In this document: positions 833 through 36,623 of the stretch, piece after piece | Position numbering within the stretch: position 1 is the stretch's first letter | Layout of the letters: the number at the start of each line of letters is the position of its first letter | Source: Kayfunavirus AN17P1 | DNA: 39,656 bases | Sequence record: OZ035755.1 | Direction: 5' to 3' (one strand) | Notes under the pieces: model-generated | Databases searched by the model: none | Told to the model about the DNA's origin: nothing | What the model saw: only the letters and a program-made list of their open reading frames with translations | Made by a program: the position numbers and the translations under genes

Positions 833-1259
833 TTACTACAAAGTGGACCCGGCTAGTCCATCCGGTCTGGTCTCCGTTAGGACTGGAAAGCCTGTGGGGA
901 CATTAAGTCGGATGGGATATTGGATAGTACAGACACGAAGTCTAGGCAGTAAGCGGGCCCATCGTGTGATATGGGAACTAACCAATGGTCCTATACCGCA
1001 TGGTATGCAAATAGACCACATCGACAGGAACCCTAGCAATAATACCTTAAGTAACTTACGGCTCGTTACTGCCGCTGAAAACACTTGGAATACTGGTAGC
1101 CATTATGACTCTAAGACAGGAGTGAAGTGCGTTACCCGTCACCAGAATGGTTATAGGATTCAGGTTAAACGCGGGAATGCCTATATGCGAACAACACGTC
1201 CCACTTTAGAGGAGGCTATCGCTGTCCGGGACCTAATGCTGGAGGGACTATATGTCTAA
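822..1259 (+). CDS. HNH homing endonuclease (HNH plus AP2-like DNA-binding region), 145 aa
   Basis: Motif [41 protein letters not shown] typical of phage HNH endonucleases; GTG start with SD AAGGAGG; overlaps the 3' end of 18.5 and the 5' end of terminase; T7 has no gene here. Confidence 0.8.
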
Positions 1260-3018
1260 GAAAACACCCGCTGAAAGACAGGCAGAAATGGTCCAAAGGA
1301 TGAGGGACGACTTCGTGTTCTTCATCTTCGTTCTCTGGAAAGCACTAAGTCTTCCGGTTCCAACCCGCTGCCAGATAGATATGTGTAAGAAGCTGGCTGC
1401 TGGGGATAATCGCCGCTTCATCCTTCAGGCGTTCCGTGGTATTGGCAAGTCGTTTTTGACCTGTGGCTTTGTGGTCTGGAAGCTATGGAATAACCCAGAC
1501 TTGAAGTTCATGATTGTGTCGGCCTCAAAGGAACGAGCCGATGCGAACTCCATCTTCATCAAGCGAATCATCGACCTCATGCCTCAGCTTCGGGAACTCA
1601 AACCTAAGCAGGGGCAGCGAGATGCGGTTATCAGCTTCGACGTTGGACCAGCCAAGCCAGACCACTCACCTTCGGTTAAGTCCGTTGGTATCACTGGTCA
1701 GTTGACTGGTAGTCGTGCTGACATCCTGATTGCCGATGACGTGGAGGTTCCGAACAACTCAGCGACTCAGGCTGCACGAGACCGTCTATCAGAGCTTGTG
1801 AAAGAGTTCGACGCTATCCTGAAGCCGGGAGGTACGATCATCTATCTGGGTACTCCTCAGAACGAGATGACCCTGTACCGTGAGCTGGAAGGTCGTGGGT
1901 ACACCACTACTATCTGGCCCGCTCGTTATCCACGCGACAGGAAGGACTGGCAGTCTTACGGCGACCGTCTGGCTCCTATGCTTCAGGCAGAGCTGGAAGA
2001 GGACCCTGAGTCCTTCTACTGGCGTCCGACTGATGAAGTACGCTTCGATGATACGGACCTGAAGGAACGTGAGCTGTCCTACGGTAAAGCTGGCTTCGCT
2101 CTACAGTTCATGCTTAACCCGAACCTGAGTGATGCCGAGAAGTACCCTCTTAAGCTCCGTGACCTTATCGTAGCCGACTTGGACCCAGCGTCCAGCCCAA
2201 TGGTCTACCAATGGTTGCCGAACCCTCAGAACAAGCGTGAGGACGTTCCTAACGTTGGACTCATGGGTGACTCGTACCACACGTATCAGACTGTAGGTTC
2301 TGCCTTCAGCTCATACACCCAGAAGATTCTGGTCATTGACCCTAGTGGTCGTGGTAAGGATGAAACTGGATATGCGGTACTGTACCAGCTCAACGGCTAC
2401 ATCTTCGCTATGGAAGTTGGTGGCATGCGTGGTGGTTATGAAGACTCTACGCTGGAAGCCTTGGCTAAGATTGGTCGTAAGTGGAAGGTCAACGAGTACG
2501 TCATTGAGGGTAACTTCGGTGATGGTATGTACCTTGAGTTATTCAAGCCTGTAGCGGCCCGTATCCATCCTTCGTCTGTAACTGAAGTGAAGAGTAAGGG
2601 TCAGAAAGAACTCCGCATCTGTGACGTTCTGGAGCCTATCATGGGGTCTCACCGACTTATCGTTAACGCTGCTGCTATAGTCCAAGACTACCAGTCTGCC
2701 TCTGATAAGGATGGTGTTCGTAACCCTATCTACTCTCTCTTCTATCAGATGACACGTATCTCTCGTGAGCGTGGAGCCTTGGCACACGATGACCGACTTG
2801 ATGCGCTGGCTATCGGTGTACAGTTCTTCGTTGAGTCTATGGCTAAGGATGCTAGCAAAGGCGAACGTGAAGTCACTGAGGAATGGCTGGAGGAACAGAT
2901 GGAGAACCCACGGAAAGGCTTCGAGTCCATCCACACTGAGTTCTGGGACAATGGGGTCCGGGTAACTCACGATACGGACGACGAGCTTGGACTAGGGGCA
3001 TACGTTACGTTACACTAG
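1252..3018 (+). CDS. gene 19: Terminase large subunit (T7 gp19 homolog), 588 aa
   Basis: Length and position match T7 gp19 (586 aa); Walker A-like GIGKS and ATPase/nuclease-type motifs (LIADDVEVP); strong SD GGAGGGACTAT before ATG. Confidence 0.95.
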
Positions 3019-3027
3019 CTGAATGAA

Positions 3028-3076
3028 TAACTATAGGTGAAAGCTGCATGAATAAGCAGTTAGTAACCTATAGTTA
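3028..3076. repeat. Perfect 11-bp inverted repeat TAACTATAGGT / ACCTATAGTTA with 27-nt loop
   Basis: Arms at 3028-3038 and 3066-3076 are exact reverse complements; arms contain the promoter core ACTATAGG; lies directly after the terminase stop. Confidence 0.5.
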
Positions 3077-3112: not shown

Positions 3113-3136
3113 ACTTAACTATCACTATAGGGAAGA
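3113..3136 (+). promoter_or_regulatory. Phage RNAP promoter (phiOR-like, right end)
   Basis: TTAACTATCACTATAGGGAAG matches the 11-member consensus CTAAACTATCACTATAGGGA; +1 G at about 3130. Confidence 0.75.
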
Positions 3137-3474: not shown

Positions 3475-3510
3475 CGCAATCATGATAACAATCAACGAAA
3501 GGAGGTAGGG

Positions 3511-3579
3511 ATGGACGAGGAGTCTTATGGGCCGTTCTCTGACGAAGATTATCAGACGGAGTGGGAATACGCGCATTGA
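3511..3579 (+). CDS. Very small acidic ORF, 22 aa (MDEESYGPFSDEDYQTEWEYAH)
   Basis: ATG preceded by SD AAAGGAGG at good spacing; no other support. Confidence 0.25.
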   Translation: MDEESYGPFSDEDYQTEWEYAH

Positions 3580-3583
3580 AGAC

Positions 3584-3624
3584 CTAAGGTCAGTTCATAG
3601 CTGACGCTACTCTACTGACCTTAG
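3584..3624. repeat. Inverted repeat CTAAGGTCAGT / ACTGACCTTAG (11-bp stem, 19-nt loop) near the right genome end
   Basis: Exact reverse-complement arms at 3584-3594 and 3614-3624; no downstream U-tract. Confidence 0.45.
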
Positions 3625-3699
3625 CTACTGTAGTCAAGGACTTTAGGTAACACCTTAATAGAAGCTCACTTAGGGTCATCCTACTTATTGGTCTATCCT

Positions 3700-4100
3700 A
3701 GTGTCGCCTGACCTACGGTCCTTGACCTACAGTAGCTGCCACCTACAGTATTCGATGAGTTTTGGACCAAAAGTTTGAGACCACATCTCACAGTTCAAGA
3801 ACCTCAAGTCTCCCCATAGGCCCTCTTTCAGTCCAGACCAAAGGCCCTACCCCAGTCTATCATAAGGTTAGACCGATGGTCAAGACTTCAGGTCAACGAT
3901 AGGTTGTGGCTATGGCTTAGGGAAGGACGATAGGTAGGGACTATTGGTCTGTCTTTGAGTCTCTATCTGTATCAGACCTTGAGTCACTACCTACAGTCTA
4001 ACTACCTACAGTCTAACTACCTACAGTCTAACTACCTACAGTCATCGACCATCGGTAATGCCGCTACCTACAGTCAGAGACCTACGGTTAATAGACACAA
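3700..4100. repeat. Genome terminus region: putative direct terminal repeat flanked by CCTAC(A/G)GT short repeats
   Basis: TCTCACAGTTCAAGAACC...CCCCATAGG at 3786 resembles the T7 (TCTCACAGTGTACGG) and T3 left-end sequences as I recall them; repeated GACCTACGGT / CACCTACAGT motifs on both sides mirror the CCTAAAG arrays flanking the T7 terminal repeat; no CDS. Repeat length cannot be read from a collapsed assembly. Confidence 0.5.
3986..4044. repeat. Tandem array, about 3.9 copies of 15-bp unit ACTACCTACAGTCTA
   Basis: Exact copies at 3986-4000, 4001-4015, 4016-4030 and a partial copy at 4031-4044. Confidence 0.9.
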
Positions 4101-4340
4101 GGCTATAGACTTAAGGTCTAAGACATGTTAGTCAAAGACTACATCCTCTTACACCATGGGGCCGACGATAGCTTAATCAATATTATTTCAAATTACCTAT
4201 TGACTATAGGTCCAGATTATGGCCTAATAGCTTCCGTCAACACGACACGGCAACAACCGGATAGTGAAGACGCCTGGTCATCCCGGTTAAGTAGACAGCC
4301 TGATAAGTCATACGAACAACAGGCAGATGACAGAAAGTAG

Positions 4341-6455: not shown

Positions 6456-9137
6456 ATGAGCGTCATCTCTATTGACAAACACGACTTCTCTGATGTGTCG
6501 AACGCCATTGAGCCGTTTAACCTGCTGGCTGACCACTACGGGCAAGACCTTGCAGTCAAACAGCTTCAGCTGGAGCACGAGGCATACACTGAAGGCGAGC
6601 GACGTTTCATCAAAAACCTTGAGCGACAGACTGAGCGCGGGGAACTGGCAGACAATCAGGTAGCCAAGCCTTTGATGCAGACTCTGGTCCCTAAGATTGC
6701 GCAAGCCGTCAGGGAGTGGCATGAAGGTCCAGACGGGAAGCTGTCAACCTCTCGTCCGAGCGTAGCGTTCACCATGTTAAGCACTGAAGAGAAGGCCGTC
6801 AAGGACCGCTCTCTTCGCATCTCCTGCGAGTCTGCTGCGGTTATCATACTGAAGGTCATCCTATCCAAGCTGGTCAAACCTGAAGGTATACCGATTACAC
6901 CGATGGCCTCCGCGATAGGTCGCACACTTGAGGATGAAATCCGATTCGGTCGCATTCGTGACAAGGAGAAGGAGCACTTCAAGAAGGCGATAGCTGATAA
7001 CCTGAACAAGAGAGCCGGGGCATCATACAAGAAAGCCTACATGCAAGCGGTCGAGACATCCATGCTGGAGCAAGGCCAACTAGAAGATGCGTGGGGAACT
7101 TGGAGTCCGACCGAGGCTGTCCACGTTGGAATCAAGATGCTGGAGATTGTCATCCAGTCAACACAACTGGTCGAGCTTAAGCGTTACGGTGCTGGCAATG
7201 CAGCGGCTGACGTTGAGATGGTCCACCTGTCAGACTTCTGGGTCAAGAAGATGACACAACGCGGCTTCAGCCTTGCGGGTATCGCTCCAGTCTACCAACC
7301 TTGCGTAGTTCCACCTAAGCCGTGGACTGGTGTCGTAGGCGGTGGGTACTGGGCCAAAGGTCGCAGACCATTACCACTGATTCGCTTAGGGTCTAAGTCT
7401 GCGGTGGCACGTTACGAAGACGTGTATATGCCTGAAGTCTATGACGCTGTTAACATAATCCAGAATACACCTTGGAAAGTGAACAAGAAGGTTCTGGACG
7501 TGGTGAACATGGTCGAGAAGTTGAACAACACGCCTATTGATGACATCCCTCAGATGGAGCCACTGAAGCCTGAAGAATATGCGGGTGAGACTGAAGAGGA
7601 ACTCAAGGCGTGGAAGAAAGCGGCTGCTGGTATCTATCGCCGCGAGAAGGCCAGACAGTCACGCAGATTGTCGCTGAGCTTTATCGTTAACCAAGCGAAC
7701 AAGTTCTCTCAGTTCAAGACCATCTGGTTCCCGTATAACATGGACTGGCGCGGTCGCGTCTACGCTGTGCCGATGTTCAACCCTCAGGGTAACGACATGC
7801 AAAAGGGTCTCCTGACTCTGGCAGTCGGTAAGCCTATTGGTGCTGATGGTTTCAAATGGCTGAAGGTCCACGGTGCAAACTGTGCGGGTGTCGATAAAGT
7901 AACCTTCGAGGAGCGCATCAAGTGGGTGGAAGATAACCACGACAACATCATGGCTACCTCTAAGGCACCGATGGACAGCATTGAGTGGTGGGGAAAGTTA
8001 GACTCTCCGTTCTGCTTCCTAGCGTTCTGCTTCGAGTATGCCGGCGTAATGCATCACGGATTGTCTTACTCCTGCTCGCTGCCGATAGCTTTCGATGGGT
8101 CCTGCTCTGGGATTCAGCACTTTAGCGCGATGCTTCGTGATCACATCGGTGGACATGCAGTAAACCTGACGCCTTCCGGTAAGGTCCAAGACATCTACCG
8201 CATCGTGTCTGACCGCATTGAGGAAGAGCTTAAAGTCCTGCTGGTTAACGGCACGGACAACGAGATGGTAACTCACGAGGACAAGAAAACTGGTGAGATT
8301 ACCGAACGTCTCAAGCTGGGGACACGAGAGCTGGCCCGGCAGTGGCTGACTTACGGTATGTCACGCAAGGTTACTAAGCGCTCAGTCATGACTCTGGCCT
8401 ATGGGTCGAAAGAGTACGGCTTTGCAGACCAAGTTTATGAGGACATCGTGATGCCAGCGATTGACTCAGGGTCTGGCGCTATGTTCACTGAACCAAGCCA
8501 AGCGTCCTGCTTCATGGCTAAGATGATTTGGGAAGCTGTGAGTGTGACCGTAGTTGCTGCGGTTGACGCGATGAAGTGGCTTCAAGGTGCTGCCAAGCTG
8601 CTGGCGGCTGAAGTGAAGGACAAGAAGACTGGAGAAATCCTGAAGCCTTGCCTTCCGGTACACTGGGTCACACCTGATGGGTTCCCGGTCTGGCAGGAAT
8701 ACCGCAAGAAGGATACCACTCGTCTGAACCTGATGTTCTTAGGGTCATTCAACCTTCAGCCTACCGTCAACAAAGGCACGAAGAAGGAGTTGGATAAGCA
8801 CAAGCAGGAGTCAGGAATTAGCCCGAACTTCGTCCACTCACAAGATGGTAGCCATCTCCGCAAGACTGTAGTCCACACTCACCGTAAGTATGGCGTGATG
8901 TCGTTCGCAGTGATTCACGATAGCTTCGGGACCATCCCGGCTGACGCTGAATATCTGTTCCGTGGTGTCCGTGAGACGATGGTCGAGACCTACCGCGATA
9001 ACGATGTGCTGCTTGACTTCTACGAGCAGTTTGAATACCAACTTCATGAGAGCCAGCGCGACAAGTTGCCTGAGCTTCCGAAGAAAGGTAAACTGAATAT
9101 TGAGGACATTCTATCTTCAGACTTTGCATTCGCTTAA
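6456..9137 (+). CDS. gene 1: T7-type single-subunit DNA-dependent RNA polymerase, 893 aa
   Basis: Collinear similarity to T7 RNAP as I recall it (AIWFPYNMDWRGRVYAV, HGANCAGVDK, SPFCFLAFCFEYAG, SCSGIQHFSAMLRD, IHDSFGT, C-terminal FAFA). Confidence 0.97.
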   Translation: MSVISIDKHDFSDVSNAIEPFNLLADHYGQDLAVKQLQLEHEAYTEGERRFIKNLERQTERGELADNQVAKPLMQTLVPKIAQAVREWHEGPDGKLSTSRPSVAFTMLSTEEKAVKDRSLRISCESAAVIILKVILSKLVKPEGIPITPMASAIGRTLEDEIRFGRIRDKEKEHFKKAIADNLNKRAGASYKKAYMQAVETSMLEQGQLEDAWGTWSPTEAVHVGIKMLEIVIQSTQLVELKRYGAGNAAADVEMVHLSDFWVKKMTQRGFSLAGIAPVYQPCVVPPKPWTGVVGGGYWAKGRRPLPLIRLGSKSAVARYEDVYMPEVYDAVNIIQNTPWKVNKKVLDVVNMVEKLNNTPIDDIPQMEPLKPEEYAGETEEELKAWKKAAAGIYRREKARQSRRLSLSFIVNQANKFSQFKTIWFPYNMDWRGRVYAVPMFNPQGNDMQKGLLTLAVGKPIGADGFKWLKVHGANCAGVDKVTFEERIKWVEDNHDNIMATSKAPMDSIEWWGKLDSPFCFLAFCFEYAGVMHHGLSYSCSLPIAFDGSCSGIQHFSAMLRDHIGGHAVNLTPSGKVQDIYRIVSDRIEEELKVLLVNGTDNEMVTHEDKKTGEITERLKLGTRELARQWLTYGMSRKVTKRSVMTLAYGSKEYGFADQVYEDIVMPAIDSGSGAMFTEPSQASCFMAKMIWEAVSVTVVAAVDAMKWLQGAAKLLAAEVKDKKTGEILKPCLPVHWVTPDGFPVWQEYRKKDTTRLNLMFLGSFNLQPTVNKGTKKELDKHKQESGISPNFVHSQDGSHLRKTVVHTHRKYGVMSFAVIHDSFGTIPADAEYLFRGVRETMVETYRDNDVLLDFYEQFEYQLHESQRDKLPELPKKGKLNIEDILSSDFAFA

Positions 9138-9429: not shown

Positions 9430-9453
9430 CCTAAACTATCACTATAGGATTAG
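9430..9453 (+). promoter_or_regulatory. Phage RNAP promoter (phi1.1-like)
   Basis: CCTAAACTATCACTATAGGATTA; consensus match. Confidence 0.75.
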
Positions 9454-9492
9454 ACTAAAGGTCATGACTCAAAGTCGTGGCCTTCATGATTA
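9451..9492 (+). promoter_or_regulatory. Conserved stem-loop, putative RNase III site (R1.1-like)
   Basis: AAGGTCATGACT / AGTCGTGGCCTT arms (9458-9469, 9473-9484) with two G-U pairs and a 3-nt loop; same family as 294-346 and 16631-16677. Confidence 0.4.
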
Positions 9493-14645: not shown

Positions 14646-14664
14646 ACTATCACCTTAGGGATGG
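14641..14664 (+). promoter_or_regulatory. Phage RNAP promoter, degenerate variant (CACCTTAGGG)
   Basis: CCTAAACTATCACCTTAGGGATGG; two mismatches in the -5 to -2 region; 50 nt before gene 4. Confidence 0.4.
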
Positions 14665-14710
14665 GACCGTGAGTCCTGTCCCTCTGTTCGCATTTGTGAT
14701 TAAGGAGTGA

Positions 14711-24490: not shown

Positions 24491-24514
24491 ACTAAACTAT
24501 CACTATAGGGAGAC
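24491..24514 (+). promoter_or_regulatory. Phage RNAP promoter (phi10-like), best consensus match
   Basis: ACTAAACTATCACTATAGGGAGACC; only copy with the full TATAGGGAGA initiation region; about 100 nt before the capsid gene. Confidence 0.85.
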
Positions 24515-24615
24515 CAAGAGACAGACTCAAGGTTTCCATATTACTTCAGTCCATACGGATTGGGCGTACAGTAAGTAATAAACTTTATATTTCAATTGAA
24601 TAGGAGAATTATCAT

Positions 24616-25671
24616 ATGGTAAACGTTCCGGGTCAGAAAATTGGTACAGACCAAGGTAAAGGCAAAGGCAAATCTGGTTCCGACGCTCTGGCGTTGTTCC
24701 TTAAGGTATTTGCTGGTGAAGTACTGACCGCATTCACTCGCCGCTCTGTAACTGCCGACAAGCATATTGTCCGTACCATTCAGAACGGTAAGTCTGCTCA
24801 GTTCCCGGTCATGGGTCGCACCTCTGGTGTGTATCTGGCTCCGGGTGAGCGACTGTCCGATAAGCGTAAAGGCATCAAACACACCGAGAAAGTGATTACC
24901 ATTGATGGTCTGCTGACTGCCGATGTGATGATTTTCGACATTGAAGACGCGATGAACCACTATGACGTGGCTGGCGAGTATTCCAACCAGCTAGGCGAAG
25001 CGCTGGCTATCGCTGCTGATGGTGCTGTTCTGGCTGAAATGGCTATCCTGTGTAACCTACCTGCAGCTTCCAACGAGAACATCGCTGGTCTAGGCACTGC
25101 GTCCGTACTGGAAGTTGGTGCCAAGGCTGACCTGAACACCCCTGCTAAACTGGGTGAAGCAATCATCGGTCAACTTACCATCGCTCGTGCGAAGCTGACC
25201 TCCAACTACGTACCTGCTGGCGACCGTTACTTCTACACCACGCCTGACAACTACTCTGCGATTCTGGCCGCTTTGATGCCTAACGCTGCTAACTACGCTG
25301 CTCTGATTGACCCTGAGACGGGCAACATCCGTAACGTAATGGGCTTCGTTGTTGTTGAGGTTCCGCACCTGACTCAGGGTGGTGCTGGTGAGACTCGTGG
25401 TGACGATGGTATCACTATCGCTTCCGGTCAGAAACACGCATTCCCAGCGACTTCTAGCGATACCGTTAAGGTTGCTCTGGACAACGTTGTGGGTCTGTTC
25501 TCTCACCGTTCTGCGGTGGGTACCGTTAAACTGCGTGACTTGGCGCTGGAACGTGACCGTGACGTCGATGCTCAGGGCGACCTGATTGTTGGTAAGTACG
25601 CTATGGGTCACGGTGGTCTGCGTCCTGAAGCAGCGGGAGCACTGGTTTTCACAGCAGCGTCAGCGGATTAA
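24616..25671 (+). CDS. gene 10: Major capsid protein 10A (T7 gp10A homolog), 351 aa
   Basis: Near-collinear identity blocks with T7 gp10A as I recall it (LALFLKVFAGEVLTAF, HTEKVITIDGLLTADV, AILAALMPNAANYAALIDPE, HRSAVGTVKLRDLALER, KYAMGHGGLRPEAAGA). Confidence 0.97.
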   Translation: MVNVPGQKIGTDQGKGKGKSGSDALALFLKVFAGEVLTAFTRRSVTADKHIVRTIQNGKSAQFPVMGRTSGVYLAPGERLSDKRKGIKHTEKVITIDGLLTADVMIFDIEDAMNHYDVAGEYSNQLGEALAIAADGAVLAEMAILCNLPAASNENIAGLGTASVLEVGAKADLNTPAKLGEAIIGQLTIARAKLTSNYVPAGDRYFYTTPDNYSAILAALMPNAANYAALIDPETGNIRNVMGFVVVEVPHLTQGGAGETRGDDGITIASGQKHAFPATSSDTVKVALDNVVGLFSHRSAVGTVKLRDLALERDRDVDAQGDLIVGKYAMGHGGLRPEAAGALVFTAASAD

Positions 25672-25938: not shown

Positions 25939-25977
25939 AACCCCTTGGGTGCCTTCGGGTGCTTGAGGGGTTTTTTG
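25939..25977 (+). terminator. T-phi-like terminator hairpin
   Basis: AACCCCTTGGGTGCC-TTCG-GGTGCTTGAGGGGTTTTTTG: G-U-containing stem plus U-tract, resembling T7 T-phi (AACCCCTTGGGGCCTCTAAACGGGTCTTGAGGGGTTTTTTG) as I recall it; immediately after the capsid region. Confidence 0.75.
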
Positions 25978-26093: not shown

Positions 26094-26660
26094 ATGGCTC
26101 AATATATTCCACTGAATGCTAACGATGACTTAGACGCCATCAACGATATGCTAGCAGCTATCGGTGAACCAGCAGTCCTACAGCTTGACGAGGGGAACGC
26201 TGACGTATCGAACGCTCAACGTATCCTGCATCGTGTCAATCGTCAGGTCCAAGCTAAAGGATGGAACTTTAACATTAATGAAGCTGCTGTCCTGACACCT
26301 GATGTCCAAGACAACAGGATTCGATTCCTGCCGTCATACCTTCGTGTAATGACTGCCGGGGCCACCAGCTACTACAGCAACATGGGTGGATACCTATACG
26401 ACCTGTCCACTCAGTCAACCACTTTCACCGACCCTATAACGGTAGAGCTTGTTGAGATGAAACCGTTCTCTGAGATGCCTGTGGTATTCAGGGACTACAT
26501 CGTTACCAAGGCCAGCCGTGAGTTCAACGCTAAGTTCTTCGGTAGCCCAGAGTCTGAACTGTACCTTCGTGAGCAGGAAGCAGAACTCTATCAGCAGGTC
26601 ATGGAATACGAGATGGACACTGGTCGCTACAACATGATGTCCGACATCGGGAGGGACTAA
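26094..26660 (+). CDS. gene 11: Tail tubular protein A (T7 gp11 homolog), 188 aa
   Basis: Similarity to T7 gp11 as I recall it (ANARRILN.INRQIQ..GW.FNI.E, IVTKASR.FN..FFG.PE, MEYEMD.G.YNM). Confidence 0.9.
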   Translation: MAQYIPLNANDDLDAINDMLAAIGEPAVLQLDEGNADVSNAQRILHRVNRQVQAKGWNFNINEAAVLTPDVQDNRIRFLPSYLRVMTAGATSYYSNMGGYLYDLSTQSTTFTDPITVELVEMKPFSEMPVVFRDYIVTKASREFNAKFFGSPESELYLREQEAELYQQVMEYEMDTGRYNMMSDIGRD

Positions 26661-26887
26661 TGGCTAGTCACAACCTGAAGATTCACCGCCAGCACTTTGG
26701 TCCGGTACAACTAGGTCTAAAGACAGCAGAGCTGAGACTTAACGACCGGGACTTTAAGGTTGGCGATTGGCTTATCCTGAATGAGTGGGACAACGGGTAT
26801 ACTGGACAACAGGTAGCACGTAAGGTTGTCCACATTGCTGACGTTGGTGACATCGCTGAGGGATACGTCCTAATGAGTATGATTTAA
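26660..26887 (+). CDS. DUF3850-like (ASCH/PUA-fold) small protein, 75 aa, inserted between tail tube genes
   Basis: SD GGGAGGGA; motif LKIHRQHFGPVQLGLKTAELRLNDRDFKVGDWLILNEWD fits the DUF3850 signature as I recall it; T7 has gene 12 directly after gene 11. Confidence 0.6.
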   Translation: MASHNLKIHRQHFGPVQLGLKTAELRLNDRDFKVGDWLILNEWDNGYTGQQVARKVVHIADVGDIAEGYVLMSMI

Positions 26888-26896
26888 GGAGGGCAT

Positions 26897-29254
26897 ATGC
26901 CACTAATTACTCAATCAATCAAGAACCTTAAAGGTGGCATTAGCCAACAGCCTGATATACTGAGGTTCTCAGACCAAGGCGAGGAACAGGTAAACTGCTG
27001 GTCATCAGAGAGTGATGGCCTACAGAAGCGTCCACCTACAGTCTTCAAGCGACGTCTTAACATCGACGTTGGGAGCAACCCTAAGTTCCACCTGATTAAC
27101 CGTGATGAGCAGGAGCAGTATTACATCGTGTTCAACGGGTCCAACATTCAGGTAGTTGACTTGAGTGGTAATCAATACTCAGTTTCCGGTGCGGTAGATT
27201 ACGTTAAGTCGTCCAACCCGCGAGATGACATACGTGTCGTTACCGTTGCAGACTATACGTTCATCGTGAACCGTAAGGTTGTCGTTAAAGGTGGAAGCGA
27301 GAAGTCACACTCTGGTTATAATCGTAAAGCTCGTGCTTTAATTAACCTGCGTGGTGGACAGTATGGTCGCACCCTTAAGGTAGGAATCAACGGAGGCGTT
27401 AAGGTTTCGCATAAGCTGCCAGCAGGTAATGATGCCGAGAATGACCCACCTAAGGTGGATGCTCAGGCCATCGGTGCAGCTCTGAGAGACCTTCTTGTTG
27501 CTGCCTATCCTACCTTCACGTTTGACCTTGGGTCTGGCTTCCTGTTAATCACTGCACCTGAAGGGACCGACATTAACGCAGTGGAGACGGAGGATGGCTA
27601 CGCTAACCAGCTAATAAGCCCAGTCCTAGACACTGTGCAGACAATCTCTAAACTACCTCTTGCCGCTCCTAATGGGTATATCATTAAGATTCAAGGTGAG
27701 ACCAACAGTAGCGCCGATGAATATTACGTGATGTATGACTCCAACACTAAGACGTGGAAGGAGACAGTAGAGCCGGGAGTGGTCACTGGGTTCGATAACA
27801 CCACAATGCCACATGCTCTGGTGAGACAATCTGACGGCTCCTTTGAGTTCAAGACTCTGGACTGGTCTAAGCGTGGTGCTGGTAATGATGACACAAACCC
27901 TATGCCTAGCTTCGTGGATGCTACGATTAACGATGTGTTCTTCTACAGGAACAGGCTAGGGTTCTTGTCAGGCGAGAACGTAATCATGAGCCGTTCAGCC
28001 AGCTACTTTTCGTTCTTCCCTAAGAGTGTGGCGACACTGAGTGATGATGACCCTATTGATGTAGCTGTAAGTCACCCTCGAATCTCAATCCTTAAGTATG
28101 CCGTTCCGTTTAGCGAGCAGCTACTACTTTGGTCTGATGAGGTTCAGTTCGTGATGACAAGCTCTGGGGTGCTTACCTCGAAGTCTATCCAGCTTGATGT
28201 AGGCTCAGAGTTTGCCTTAGGAGATAATGCCAGACCGTTCGCTGTAGGACGCTCAGTCTTCTTCCCAGCGCCTCGTGGGTCATTCACCAGCATTAAGCGA
28301 TACTTCGCTGTAGCAGATGTGTCTGACGTGAAGGATGCCGATGATACCACTGGTCACGTACTGTCCTATATCCCTAACGGGGTGTTTGACATTCAAGGTA
28401 CAGGGACTGAGAACTACATCTGCGTCAACTCTACAGGTGCATACAACCTAATCTACATCTATAAGTTCTTGTTTAAGGACGGCGTACAGCTTCAAGCCTC
28501 TTGGTCGCACTGGGAGTTCCCTAAAGCTGATAAGATTCTGGCGTCTGCTTCGATTGGCTCTACCATGTTCATTGTTCGTCAGCACCAAGGCGGCGTGGAC
28601 CTTGAGCACCTTAAGTTTATCAAGGAGGCAACCGACTTTCCGTTAGAGCCATATAGACTCCACGTTGACTCCAAGGTGTCTATGGTAATACCAATTGGCT
28701 CATACAACGTTGACACCTATAAGACTACGGTTGACATTGGTTCTGCTTATGGTGGAAACGCTCCGTCTCCCGGTCGGTACTATCTTATTGACAGTCAGGG
28801 TGCCTACGTGGACCTTGGTGAATTGACAGACATCTCAACTGTGGCTATACTAAATGGCGATTGGTCAGGACGTACAGTGTTCATAGGACGGTCTTATCTG
28901 ATGTCCTACAAGTTCTCACGGTTCCTGATTAAGATTGAAGACGGTAGCGGCACTCAATCTGAAGACACTGGTCGTCTACAACTTCGTCGGGCTTGGGTCA
29001 ACTACAAGGACACTGGCGCTCTTAGACTCATTGTCAGAAACGGTGAGCGGGAGTTCGTGAATACCTTTAATGGGTACACCCTTGGTCAGCAGACCATTGG
29101 GACTACCAACATTGGTGACGGTCAGTATCGCTTCGCTATGAATGGTAACGCATTAATCACGAGTCTAACCTTAGAGTCAGATTATCCTACCCCAGTGTCC
29201 ATCGTTGGCTGTGGCTGGGAGGCGTCATACGCTAAGAAAGCTCGTTCTGTCTAA
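26897..29254 (+). CDS. gene 12: Tail tubular protein B (T7 gp12 homolog), 785 aa
   Basis: N-terminus MPLITQSIKNLKGGISQQPDILRFSDQG matches T7 gp12 MALISQSIKNLKGGISQQPDILRYPDQG as I recall it, with many collinear blocks (RNRLGFLSGEN, LKYAVPFSE, GRLQLRRAWVNY). Confidence 0.96.
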   Translation: MPLITQSIKNLKGGISQQPDILRFSDQGEEQVNCWSSESDGLQKRPPTVFKRRLNIDVGSNPKFHLINRDEQEQYYIVFNGSNIQVVDLSGNQYSVSGAVDYVKSSNPRDDIRVVTVADYTFIVNRKVVVKGGSEKSHSGYNRKARALINLRGGQYGRTLKVGINGGVKVSHKLPAGNDAENDPPKVDAQAIGAALRDLLVAAYPTFTFDLGSGFLLITAPEGTDINAVETEDGYANQLISPVLDTVQTISKLPLAAPNGYIIKIQGETNSSADEYYVMYDSNTKTWKETVEPGVVTGFDNTTMPHALVRQSDGSFEFKTLDWSKRGAGNDDTNPMPSFVDATINDVFFYRNRLGFLSGENVIMSRSASYFSFFPKSVATLSDDDPIDVAVSHPRISILKYAVPFSEQLLLWSDEVQFVMTSSGVLTSKSIQLDVGSEFALGDNARPFAVGRSVFFPAPRGSFTSIKRYFAVADVSDVKDADDTTGHVLSYIPNGVFDIQGTGTENYICVNSTGAYNLIYIYKFLFKDGVQLQASWSHWEFPKADKILASASIGSTMFIVRQHQGGVDLEHLKFIKEATDFPLEPYRLHVDSKVSMVIPIGSYNVDTYKTTVDIGSAYGGNAPSPGRYYLIDSQGAYVDLGELTDISTVAILNGDWSGRTVFIGRSYLMSYKFSRFLIKIEDGSGTQSEDTGRLQLRRAWVNYKDTGALRLIVRNGEREFVNTFNGYTLGQQTIGTTNIGDGQYRFAMNGNALITSLTLESDYPTPVSIVGCGWEASYAKKARSV

Positions 29255-29261
29255 CTTATTG

Positions 29262-29311
29262 AAGGGCCTATAGATTTACCTTAACTATCACTATAGGGAC
29301 TATAGGCCCTT
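29262..29311. repeat. Perfect 12-bp inverted repeat AAGGGCCTATAG / CTATAGGCCCTT enclosing the phi13 promoter core
   Basis: Arms at 29262-29273 and 29300-29311 are exact reverse complements; the 26-nt loop holds TTAACTATCACTATAGGGA. Confidence 0.6.
29279..29302 (+). promoter_or_regulatory. Phage RNAP promoter (phi13-like)
   Basis: CCTTAACTATCACTATAGGGACT; consensus match. Confidence 0.75.
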
Positions 29312-29330
29312 AAGGTTATAAGGAGACTTT

Positions 29331-29801
29331 ATGTATATTCGCAAGGCTACGGAACCAGATGTCCACTACTTTCTGTGGCATCTTTCAGCAGATGATGTTA
29401 ATGAATGCAAAGCAAACTACGGGTCAACCGTTGGTCTCTCAGAGAGACTGCTTAAGCACCTATCTCCATCATCTGTGGTTTTAACGAACGGTGTAGGTGA
29501 AGTGTTTGCCTATGGTGGAAACCAAGGGGATAACGTATGGTTCTTGACTTCTGGTCTGGTCTACAAGCTGGGGCCTAAAGAGAAGCGAGAGTTCATAAAG
29601 TGTATCTCTGAGTACAGGGACTTAATGTTAGACCAATACGGGACCATCTGGAACTACGTGTGGTCAGGCAATAAGTCTCACATTAAATTCTTGAAGTTGC
29701 TTGGCGCTAAATTCCATGATGATTGGACTGTAAGCCCGGTAACTGGTGAGCGTTTTCAACTATTCACTATCTCTAAGGAGGACGTATGTGCGAGCCAGTA
29801 A
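29331..29801 (+). CDS. gene 13: gp13-position protein (internal virion / assembly protein A), 156 aa
   Basis: SD TAAGGAG; position between gp12 and gp14 behind a phage promoter. Confidence 0.55.
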   Translation: MYIRKATEPDVHYFLWHLSADDVNECKANYGSTVGLSERLLKHLSPSSVVLTNGVGEVFAYGGNQGDNVWFLTSGLVYKLGPKEKREFIKCISEYRDLMLDQYGTIWNYVWSGNKSHIKFLKLLGAKFHDDWTVSPVTGERFQLFTISKEDVCASQ

Positions 29802-36559: not shown

Positions 36560-36578
36560 ACTATCACTATAGGAAACG
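36555..36578 (+). promoter_or_regulatory. Phage RNAP promoter (phi17-like)
   Basis: GACTAAACTATCACTATAGGAAAC; overlaps the gp16 stop. Confidence 0.75.
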
Positions 36579-36623
36579 GGAGGCGCTACCATAGGTCTCC
36601 GTTTAAATAACAAAGGAGGCATA

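Follow-up and report, generated by a model that had tools for sequence, protein, structure and literature searches.

Genomic context of the phi13 region

The window, as the whole stretch of DNA analysed here (39,656 nt) is called throughout, is a complete, circularly permuted Kayfunavirus genome (K1F-like, Studiervirinae), which shares 99.5% identity with phage vB_EcoP-22664UKE3-2 over the test kilobase. Landmarks of the circular permutation are gene 19 at 1252-3018, the phiOR promoter core at 3118 and the RNA polymerase gene at 6456-9137, and the terminal-repeat or left-end non-coding region (about 3500-4120) carries 15-nt tandem units, CCTACAGTCTAACTA, at about 3985-4045 as well as an 11-bp inverted repeat, CTAAGGTCAGT, at 3584-3594/3614-3624. 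The hairpin element described in this work is located between genes 12 and 13, in a gap of 76 nt, and its surroundings comprise the following features:

about 25940-25975: late terminator Tphi, a hairpin at 25952-25969 with a T-run (terminator scan)
26897-29254, plus strand: gene 12, tail tubular protein B (ORF and homology)
29279-29301, plus strand: phage RNA polymerase promoter phi13 (-17 to +6, with G29296 as +1)
29331-29801, plus strand: gene 13, internal virion protein A (ORF; Pfam Phage_T7_Gp13, E = 1.6e-41), the first gene downstream of phi13 and the hairpin

Eleven T7-type promoter cores are present on the plus strand of the window, against 0.35 expected by chance, and one of them, ACTATCACTATAGGGA (29284-29299), is carried by the spacer between two inverted arms, where the promoter fills most of a 26-nt loop. 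Its start, G29296, was placed by alignment with the curated record of phage EcoDS1 (NC_011042), in which "promoter phi13" is annotated at 25367-25389; the same sequence thus bears that name in a near-identical gap, and the promoter that the original prediction had called phi13-like is confirmed as such. No promoter-like sequence was found between Tphi and phi13, even when 6 mismatches in 20 were allowed, and genes 11 and 12 are therefore transcribed by read-through of Tphi only, so that each gene 12 transcript enters the hairpin. Likewise, genes 11 and 12 of T7 are expressed by terminator read-through (PMC5592923).

Bracketing arms are absent at the other ten promoters of the window. Hairpins that start at or just past +1 were observed at other promoters (9447-9490, 14658-14685, 24508-24537 and 36572-36607), such as AAGGUCAUGACU...AGUCGUGGCCUU (promoter at 9435) and GGGAUGGGAC...GUCCUGUCCC (promoter at 14646). 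Unlike the phi13 element, these are included in the transcripts from their own promoter, and they are likely to be 5' stabilising or processing hairpins.

The inverted repeat around phi13

The inverted repeat and the promoter-core duplication that overlaps it are made up as follows:

29262-29273, plus strand: AAGGGCCTATAG, the 5' arm (-34 to -23, counted from the phi13 start; on upstream read-through RNA only)
29265-29273, plus strand: core of the 5' arm, GGCCTATAG (-31 to -23, where it has no promoter role)
29290-29307, plus strand: tandem direct repeat of the promoter core, ACTATAGGG (29290-29298) and then ACTATAGGC (29299-29307), as read from the sequence
29300-29311, plus strand: 3' arm of the hairpin, CTATAGGCCCTT (+5 to +16 of phi13 transcripts; invariant in 21 of 21 distinct relatives)

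The two arms, of 12 nt each, are 100% complementary and lie 26 nt apart, just as had been proposed for this promoter. It had also been proposed that the right arm overlaps the start region, which is correct for the initially transcribed region (+5 to +16) but not for the start site itself, which the arm leaves uncovered. The 3' arm is supplied by the downstream copy of the tandem repeat, ACTATAGGC.

No other inverted repeat in the 39.7-kb window combines perfect arms of 12 bp or more with a loop no longer than 60 nt. Of the dinucleotide shuffles, 13% contained at least one such repeat (0.17 per genome on average), and arm length alone is therefore only modestly improbable. What excludes a chance origin is that the repeat brackets a promoter in a 76-nt intergenic gap and is conserved across the genus.

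Two further readings of the arms as promoters were considered and rejected. A minus-strand promoter in the 5' arm matches by CTATAGG alone: the -7 to -17 determinants do not match, and each of the 11 promoters lies on the plus strand. For the same reasons, the downstream core copy was not accepted as a separate start site. Minus-strand CTATAGG occurs at two sites in the genome only, the phi13 5' arm and a second hairpin at 3028-3076. The latter is located after the stop codon of the terminase gene (gene 19) and upstream of the phiOR promoter, and it consists of arms with the promoter-core heptamer, TAACTATAGGT / ACCTATAGTTA (11 bp), and a 6-bp upper tier, AGCTGC/GCAGTT (-24.7 kcal/mol, z = -3.2). 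It may be another processing hairpin composed of promoter-like sequence.

Predicted structure of the read-through RNA

Folding of the read-through RNA gave a 12-bp stem of -18.4 kcal/mol, with pair probabilities of 0.69-1.0 in a 221-nt context, which upholds the strong hairpin that had been predicted for transcripts coming from upstream. The 96-nt region as a whole folds at -28.4 kcal/mol (z = -2.9). RNA initiated at phi13 lacks the 5' arm and is predicted to be unstructured (z = +0.44). The 5' arm can also pair with the true promoter core, but only weakly, through 7 bp worth -6.6 kcal/mol as compared with -18.4 kcal/mol for the stem. Two short tiers are predicted to extend the helix on either side:

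29252-29256, plus strand: 5' strand of the predicted lower tier, UAACU, including the gene 12 stop codon and pairing with 29314-29318
29279-29298, plus strand: predicted upper tier, CCUUA (29279-29283) pairing with UAGGG (29294-29298) in the minimum-free-energy structure
29314-29318, plus strand: GGUUA, the 3' side of the predicted lower tier, located 2 nt upstream of AAGGAG (29320-29325), the Shine-Dalgarno sequence of gene 13

The upper tier adds -3.1 kcal/mol and leaves a 10-nt terminal loop, and it is not conserved in relatives with the other promoter type described below. In the alignment of relatives, the lower tier (columns 18-22 with 80-84) is paired in 93% of cells, and its changes are one-sided, from U-A to U.G. 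Relatives of the Dev2/GA2A type form a 22-bp composite helix according to RNAfold.

A small hairpin, AGGUU/GACUU (29313-29317 with 29325-29329), was also observed at 29313-29329, the loop of which holds most of the gene 13 Shine-Dalgarno sequence. It was predicted by RNAalifold across the 21 relatives, is kept across a 10-11 nt insertion in some of them, and competes with the lower tier of the main helix.

Hairpins were assessed by folding each intergenic gap; this replaced a genome-wide energy scan in 90-nt windows, which was dominated by G+C-rich coding windows and left A+T-rich intergenic hairpins unranked. A search of Rfam returned no match in 29150-29450 at E up to 10.

Conservation within Kayfunavirus

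Conservation was followed in an alignment (A1) of 21 distinct versions of the gap, taken from Kayfunavirus genomes in which the gp12 C-terminus is 60-99% identical to that of the window. The numbers of variable columns were as follows:

Core arms, GGCCTATAG / CTATAGGCC: 1 of 18
Specificity region of the loop promoter: 11 of 15
End of the gene 12 coding sequence: 12 of 16

The lone variable column of the core arms holds an A-to-G change in the 5' core, GGCCTATAG, which yields a G.U pair. The outer 3 bp of the 12-bp stem are neither conserved nor compensated, and the G:C pair 29264/29309 is broken in 14 of the 21 sequences. No compensatory pair was found within the genus, whether in the 12- or 15-pair stem, by RNAalifold or in a two-tier model of 19 pairs; in this last model 91.5% of positions are paired and the changes are again one-sided (U-A to U.G). 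The original prediction had looked to conservation and co-variation of the arms among relatives: the first was found, in 21 sequences, but the second was not, the number of compensatory pairs being 0. The case for structure rests on invariance within the genus and on analogy with other genera, not on covariation, and the covariation tests neither support nor refute it.

The promoter consensus of the window, CTAAACTATCACTATAGG, is found at 11 sites, while that of Cronobacter phage GW1 (NC_048161), TTAAACCCTCACTATAGG, is found at 12 sites genome-wide. A promoter of the TTAAACCCTCACTATAGG type is also present at phi13 of SFP20 and IJM02. The existence of two promoter consensus types within Kayfunavirus implies that the specificity of the RNA polymerase has switched within the genus. 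Conservation of the arms is independent of promoter specificity, as the arms of GW1, SFP20 and IJM02 are unchanged around a loop with another promoter.

Among the reference genomes of the genus, the type phage K1F has a 76-nt spacer identical to that of the window, in a record with CDS features only, and EcoDS1 has the same arms and an annotated phi13 promoter. The curated records of EcoDS1 and K1F contain no annotation of an RNase III site or of a hairpin.

A 75-aa ORF with a DUF3850/ASCH domain (Pfam E = 1.9e-19; PHROG 986, "RNA-binding protein") lies between genes 11 and 12 at 26660-26887. A link between this ORF and the hairpin was considered and rejected: EcoDS1 has the ORF, but K1F and GW1 lack it and still have the hairpin, and for this reason we regard the ORF as an accessory gene unrelated to the hairpin.

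Comparison across Studiervirinae

The gap after gene 12 was recovered from about 28 distinct Studiervirinae lineages, and a hairpin is present in the gene 12-13 gap of almost every other lineage sampled. In most of them (T7, T3-like, two K11-like promoter types and gh-1-like), the phage's own promoter core lies inside the 3' arm of the main hairpin, and the 5' arm is complementary to it, tracking the promoter lineage by lineage. The arms (5' / 3') are:

T7: UUCUCCCUGUGGUG / CACUAUAGGGAGAA
T3-like: GUCUCCCUGUGGUG / CACUAAAGGGAGAC
K11-like: CCUUAUGGUGUGCUC / GGGCACACUAUAGGG
Second Klebsiella type: GUCUCCCUGUGGUGUUGCU / GGUAGCACUAUAGGGAGAC
gh-1-like: AAGUGGGGG / CCCUCACU

The hairpins of these other genera include one to four G.U pairs, positions that would be mismatched in DNA as well as on the opposite strand. 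A 5' arm that tracks each promoter in stems with G.U pairs points to selection on the sense-strand RNA, and this is the strongest evidence for such selection that we obtained. In ICP3-like phages the hairpin is located downstream of +1. Among the groups sampled, arms that bracket the promoter are found in Kayfunavirus only.

A sister lineage was observed in IMG/VR (UViG 2700988933, about 1250-1345), with a gp12 C-terminus 64% identical and the same gene 13 start. It has a phi13 hairpin of the T7 type, GUCCCCUAUGGU / ACACUAUAGGGGAC, in which the promoter core is the 3' arm.

Relationship to R13 and putative function

The closest annotated counterpart is found in the T3 RefSeq record (NC_003298), where "T3 promoter phi13" (25457-25479) lies inside a stem_loop (25443-25480) labelled "RNase III recognition site R13". 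Both elements occupy the gene 12-13 gap, with the promoter wholly within the stem-loop and the 5' arm upstream of the promoter, so that the hairpin can form on read-through RNA only. They differ in that the 3' arm of T3 R13 is the promoter core itself (CACUAAAGGGAGAC), its loop is the 8-10 nt upstream half of the promoter and its stem contains one G.U pair and a mismatch. In the Kayfunavirus form, by contrast, the 26-nt loop takes up the whole promoter, a duplicate of the core at +5 to +16 serves as the 3' arm, and its complementarity to the 5' arm is perfect. R13 of T7 is located in the same gap, where the hairpin UUCUCCCUGUGGUG/CACUAUAGGGAGAA overlaps phi13 (start 27274) and folds at -31 kcal/mol over 101 nt (z = -3.9); here, too, the promoter forms the 3' arm, and the stem has two G.U pairs. 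The T7 transcript is reportedly cut at 27281, a position that goes back to the 1983 work of Dunn and Studier, while the T7 records NC_001604, V01146 and PP384405 list the promoter and give no R13 cut coordinate. T7 R13 is accepted as an RNase III site on late read-through transcripts and has been described as weak (PMC5592923). The original prediction had invoked T7 R13 as a precedent, which is apt insofar as the R13 hairpin overlaps phi13 in T7 and is annotated in T3, but a promoter placed in the loop is not the geometry of either phage.

With these elements the Kayfunavirus hairpin shares its location, overlapping phi13 between genes 12 and 13 as in T3 and EcoDS1, and a stable predicted fold on the sense read-through RNA with the 5' arm upstream of +1. 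The use of the promoter core as the 3' arm (-7 to +7), which is seen in T7, T3, K11-like and gh-1-like phages, is not found in the window. This is a geometric variant, by which the functional analogy with R13 does not fail.

Taken by this analogy, the inverted repeat is best explained, with a fair degree of confidence on our part, as an RNA hairpin that is the Kayfunavirus counterpart of T7/T3 R13 and a putative RNase III site, and it would probably serve as a host RNase III processing or stability site on read-through RNA. Phage RNA polymerase reads through Tphi, so that the transcript of genes 11-12 continues across the gene 12-13 gap. On this RNA, 29262-29273 would pair with 29300-29311, and the short tiers would extend the helix to approximately two turns with internal loops. 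Host RNase III would then be expected to bind the helix and cut near its base, presumably around 29312-29318 on the 3' side, separating the 11-12 message from the 13-17 message, and the 3'-terminal hairpin left on the upstream mRNA may protect it. Transcripts started at phi13 (+1 = 29296), being without the 5' arm and predicted to be unstructured, would escape processing.

The known rules for E. coli RNase III bear on this reading in both directions. The enzyme needs a helix of at least 11 bp between the cut site and the loop; its substrates typically have two helical turns, which coaxial stacking can provide; where there are internal loops, only one strand is cut, which leaves a protective 3' hairpin behind; and a G-C pair at position 2 of the proximal box is inhibitory for binding (PMC1540722). 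The window helix offers 12 contiguous base pairs together with the predicted 5-bp upper and 5-bp lower tiers, and the 22-bp composite helices predicted for the Dev2/GA2A-type relatives would fall in the RNase III substrate range. T7 R1.1-type substrates, as studied by Nicholson and co-workers, have approximately two helical turns made of stacked tiers and internal loops; the loop of the phi13 hairpin is much larger than theirs (26 nt, or 10 nt with the upper tier). Counting against the RNase III reading, the uninterrupted helix is only 12 bp long and its outer 3 bp are broken in most relatives, T7 R13 is weak, Rfam gives no match and the EcoDS1 and K1F records carry no RNase III annotation. 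Counting against efficient cleavage, a cut at the very base of the 12-bp stem would put a G-C pair at proximal-box position 2. A literature search returned no paper naming both Kayfunavirus and RNase III.

The shortness of the contiguous helix and the weak cutting of T7 R13 fit with a selected RNA structure on read-through transcripts that RNase III leaves uncut, and that acts as a barrier to 3'-to-5' exonucleases once decay has proceeded from downstream, as a binding-only site or as a structural insulator between gene 12 termination and gene 13 initiation. The fold and its conservation would be the same as for the RNase III reading, and this reading is in keeping with a lower tier that takes in the stop codon of gene 12 and reaches to 2 nt from the Shine-Dalgarno sequence of gene 13. 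It is at odds with the annotation of the T3 positional homologue as an RNase III site, with the accepted status of T7 R13 as a cleavage site and with the composite helix of relatives, whose 22 bp are a canonical substrate length. We hold an uncut structure of this kind to be somewhat unlikely, but a rival to be taken seriously.

Far less credit can be given to the idea that the hairpin is a functionless by-product, composed of a tandem duplication of the promoter core and a chance or relic complementary segment. The 3' arm does visibly duplicate the promoter core, compensatory covariation is nil and 13% of the shuffled genomes contain a perfect inverted repeat of 12 bp. However, the core of the 5' arm, which has no promoter role at -31 to -23, is invariant among relatives with 60-99% gp12 identity while adjacent positions vary, and a hairpin is kept at this gap in nearly all Studiervirinae with unrelated sequences, which makes a by-product very improbable.

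Action at the level of DNA, either through a cruciform or hairpin around the promoter or through a protein-binding palindrome with two half-sites that regulates phi13 initiation, had been raised by the original prediction. A 26-bp spacer makes cruciform extrusion very unfavourable, and we know of no candidate binding protein; the ASCH-domain ORF nearby is missing from K1F and from GW1, both of which retain the arms. The arms are perfectly Watson-Crick in the window and flank the promoter symmetrically, the single-stranded DNA folds at -11.4 kcal/mol (z = -3.3), and there is a host defence system that can detect the palindromes of T7 RNase III sites at the DNA level (PMC11707656). On the other side, the other ten promoters are without arms, so initiation does not need them, and the homologous hairpins use G.U pairs, which are DNA mismatches, just as the arm substitution and the lower-tier changes within the genus are of the G.U type. 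The spacer, the G.U-bearing homologues and the G.U-type arm change leave the DNA-level proposal without support, and we consider it highly unlikely.

Finally, that the hairpin is a pause or termination signal for phage RNA polymerase, attenuating read-through into genes 13-17 so that phi13 sets their expression, is scarcely probable either: a stable nascent-RNA hairpin does lie directly upstream of a new transcription unit, but T7 Tphi-type terminators (a stable hairpin and then a U run) require the U-run, the stem is followed by CUUAAGGUUAUAAGG (AAGGUUAUAAGG) with no U-run, and the terminator scan reports Tphi (25952-25969 and its T-run) and nothing at the phi13 hairpin.

Origin and significance

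Comparison of the two geometries suggests how the bracketing arms may have arisen, and from the sequences we infer that the 3' arm came from a 9-nt tandem duplication of the promoter core in a T7-type ancestor. In such an ancestor the 5' arm would have paired with the promoter core, which was itself the 3' arm. After duplication, the upstream copy would have kept the full promoter with its GGGA start and the downstream copy the pairing, and the bracketing arms would no longer constrain the promoter. The geometry that preceded the 9-nt duplication may be represented by UViG 2700988933.

It might further be proposed that the bracketing geometry is adaptive, freeing phi13 from pairing with the arm, and that the three-tier helix could be an origin-sensing switch, which is conceivable because the helix begins at the stop codon of gene 12 and stops 2 nt short of the ribosome-binding site of gene 13. 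We regard this as unlikely. If true, the hairpin would be a promoter-independent cassette, allowing a switch between CTAAACTATCAC-type and TTAAACCCTCAC-type specificity without loss of the processing site, and read-through and phi13-initiated gene 13 mRNAs would differ in processing, stability or translation.

The phi13 hairpin is real and conserved but essentially ordinary, the same arrangement being already annotated in T3 and known in T7, and in this respect the finding adds little that is new. It is unannotated in Kayfunavirus records, though the sequence itself is not new, the K1F spacer being identical. K1F-like genomes, which are common therapeutic and engineering chassis, are annotated for the promoter only, and editing or refactoring of the gene 12-13 gap might abolish a conserved RNA element without the designer being aware of it. 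Host defence systems, DdmABC/Lamassu for example, are also able to recognise perfect palindromes of this kind as DNA. For the subfamily, a promoter-in-hairpin arrangement is kept across essentially the whole of Studiervirinae, with a different geometry in K1F-like phages, and the way in which the 5' arm follows the promoter of each lineage is a clear case, provided by nature, of selection on RNA superimposed on a DNA signal.
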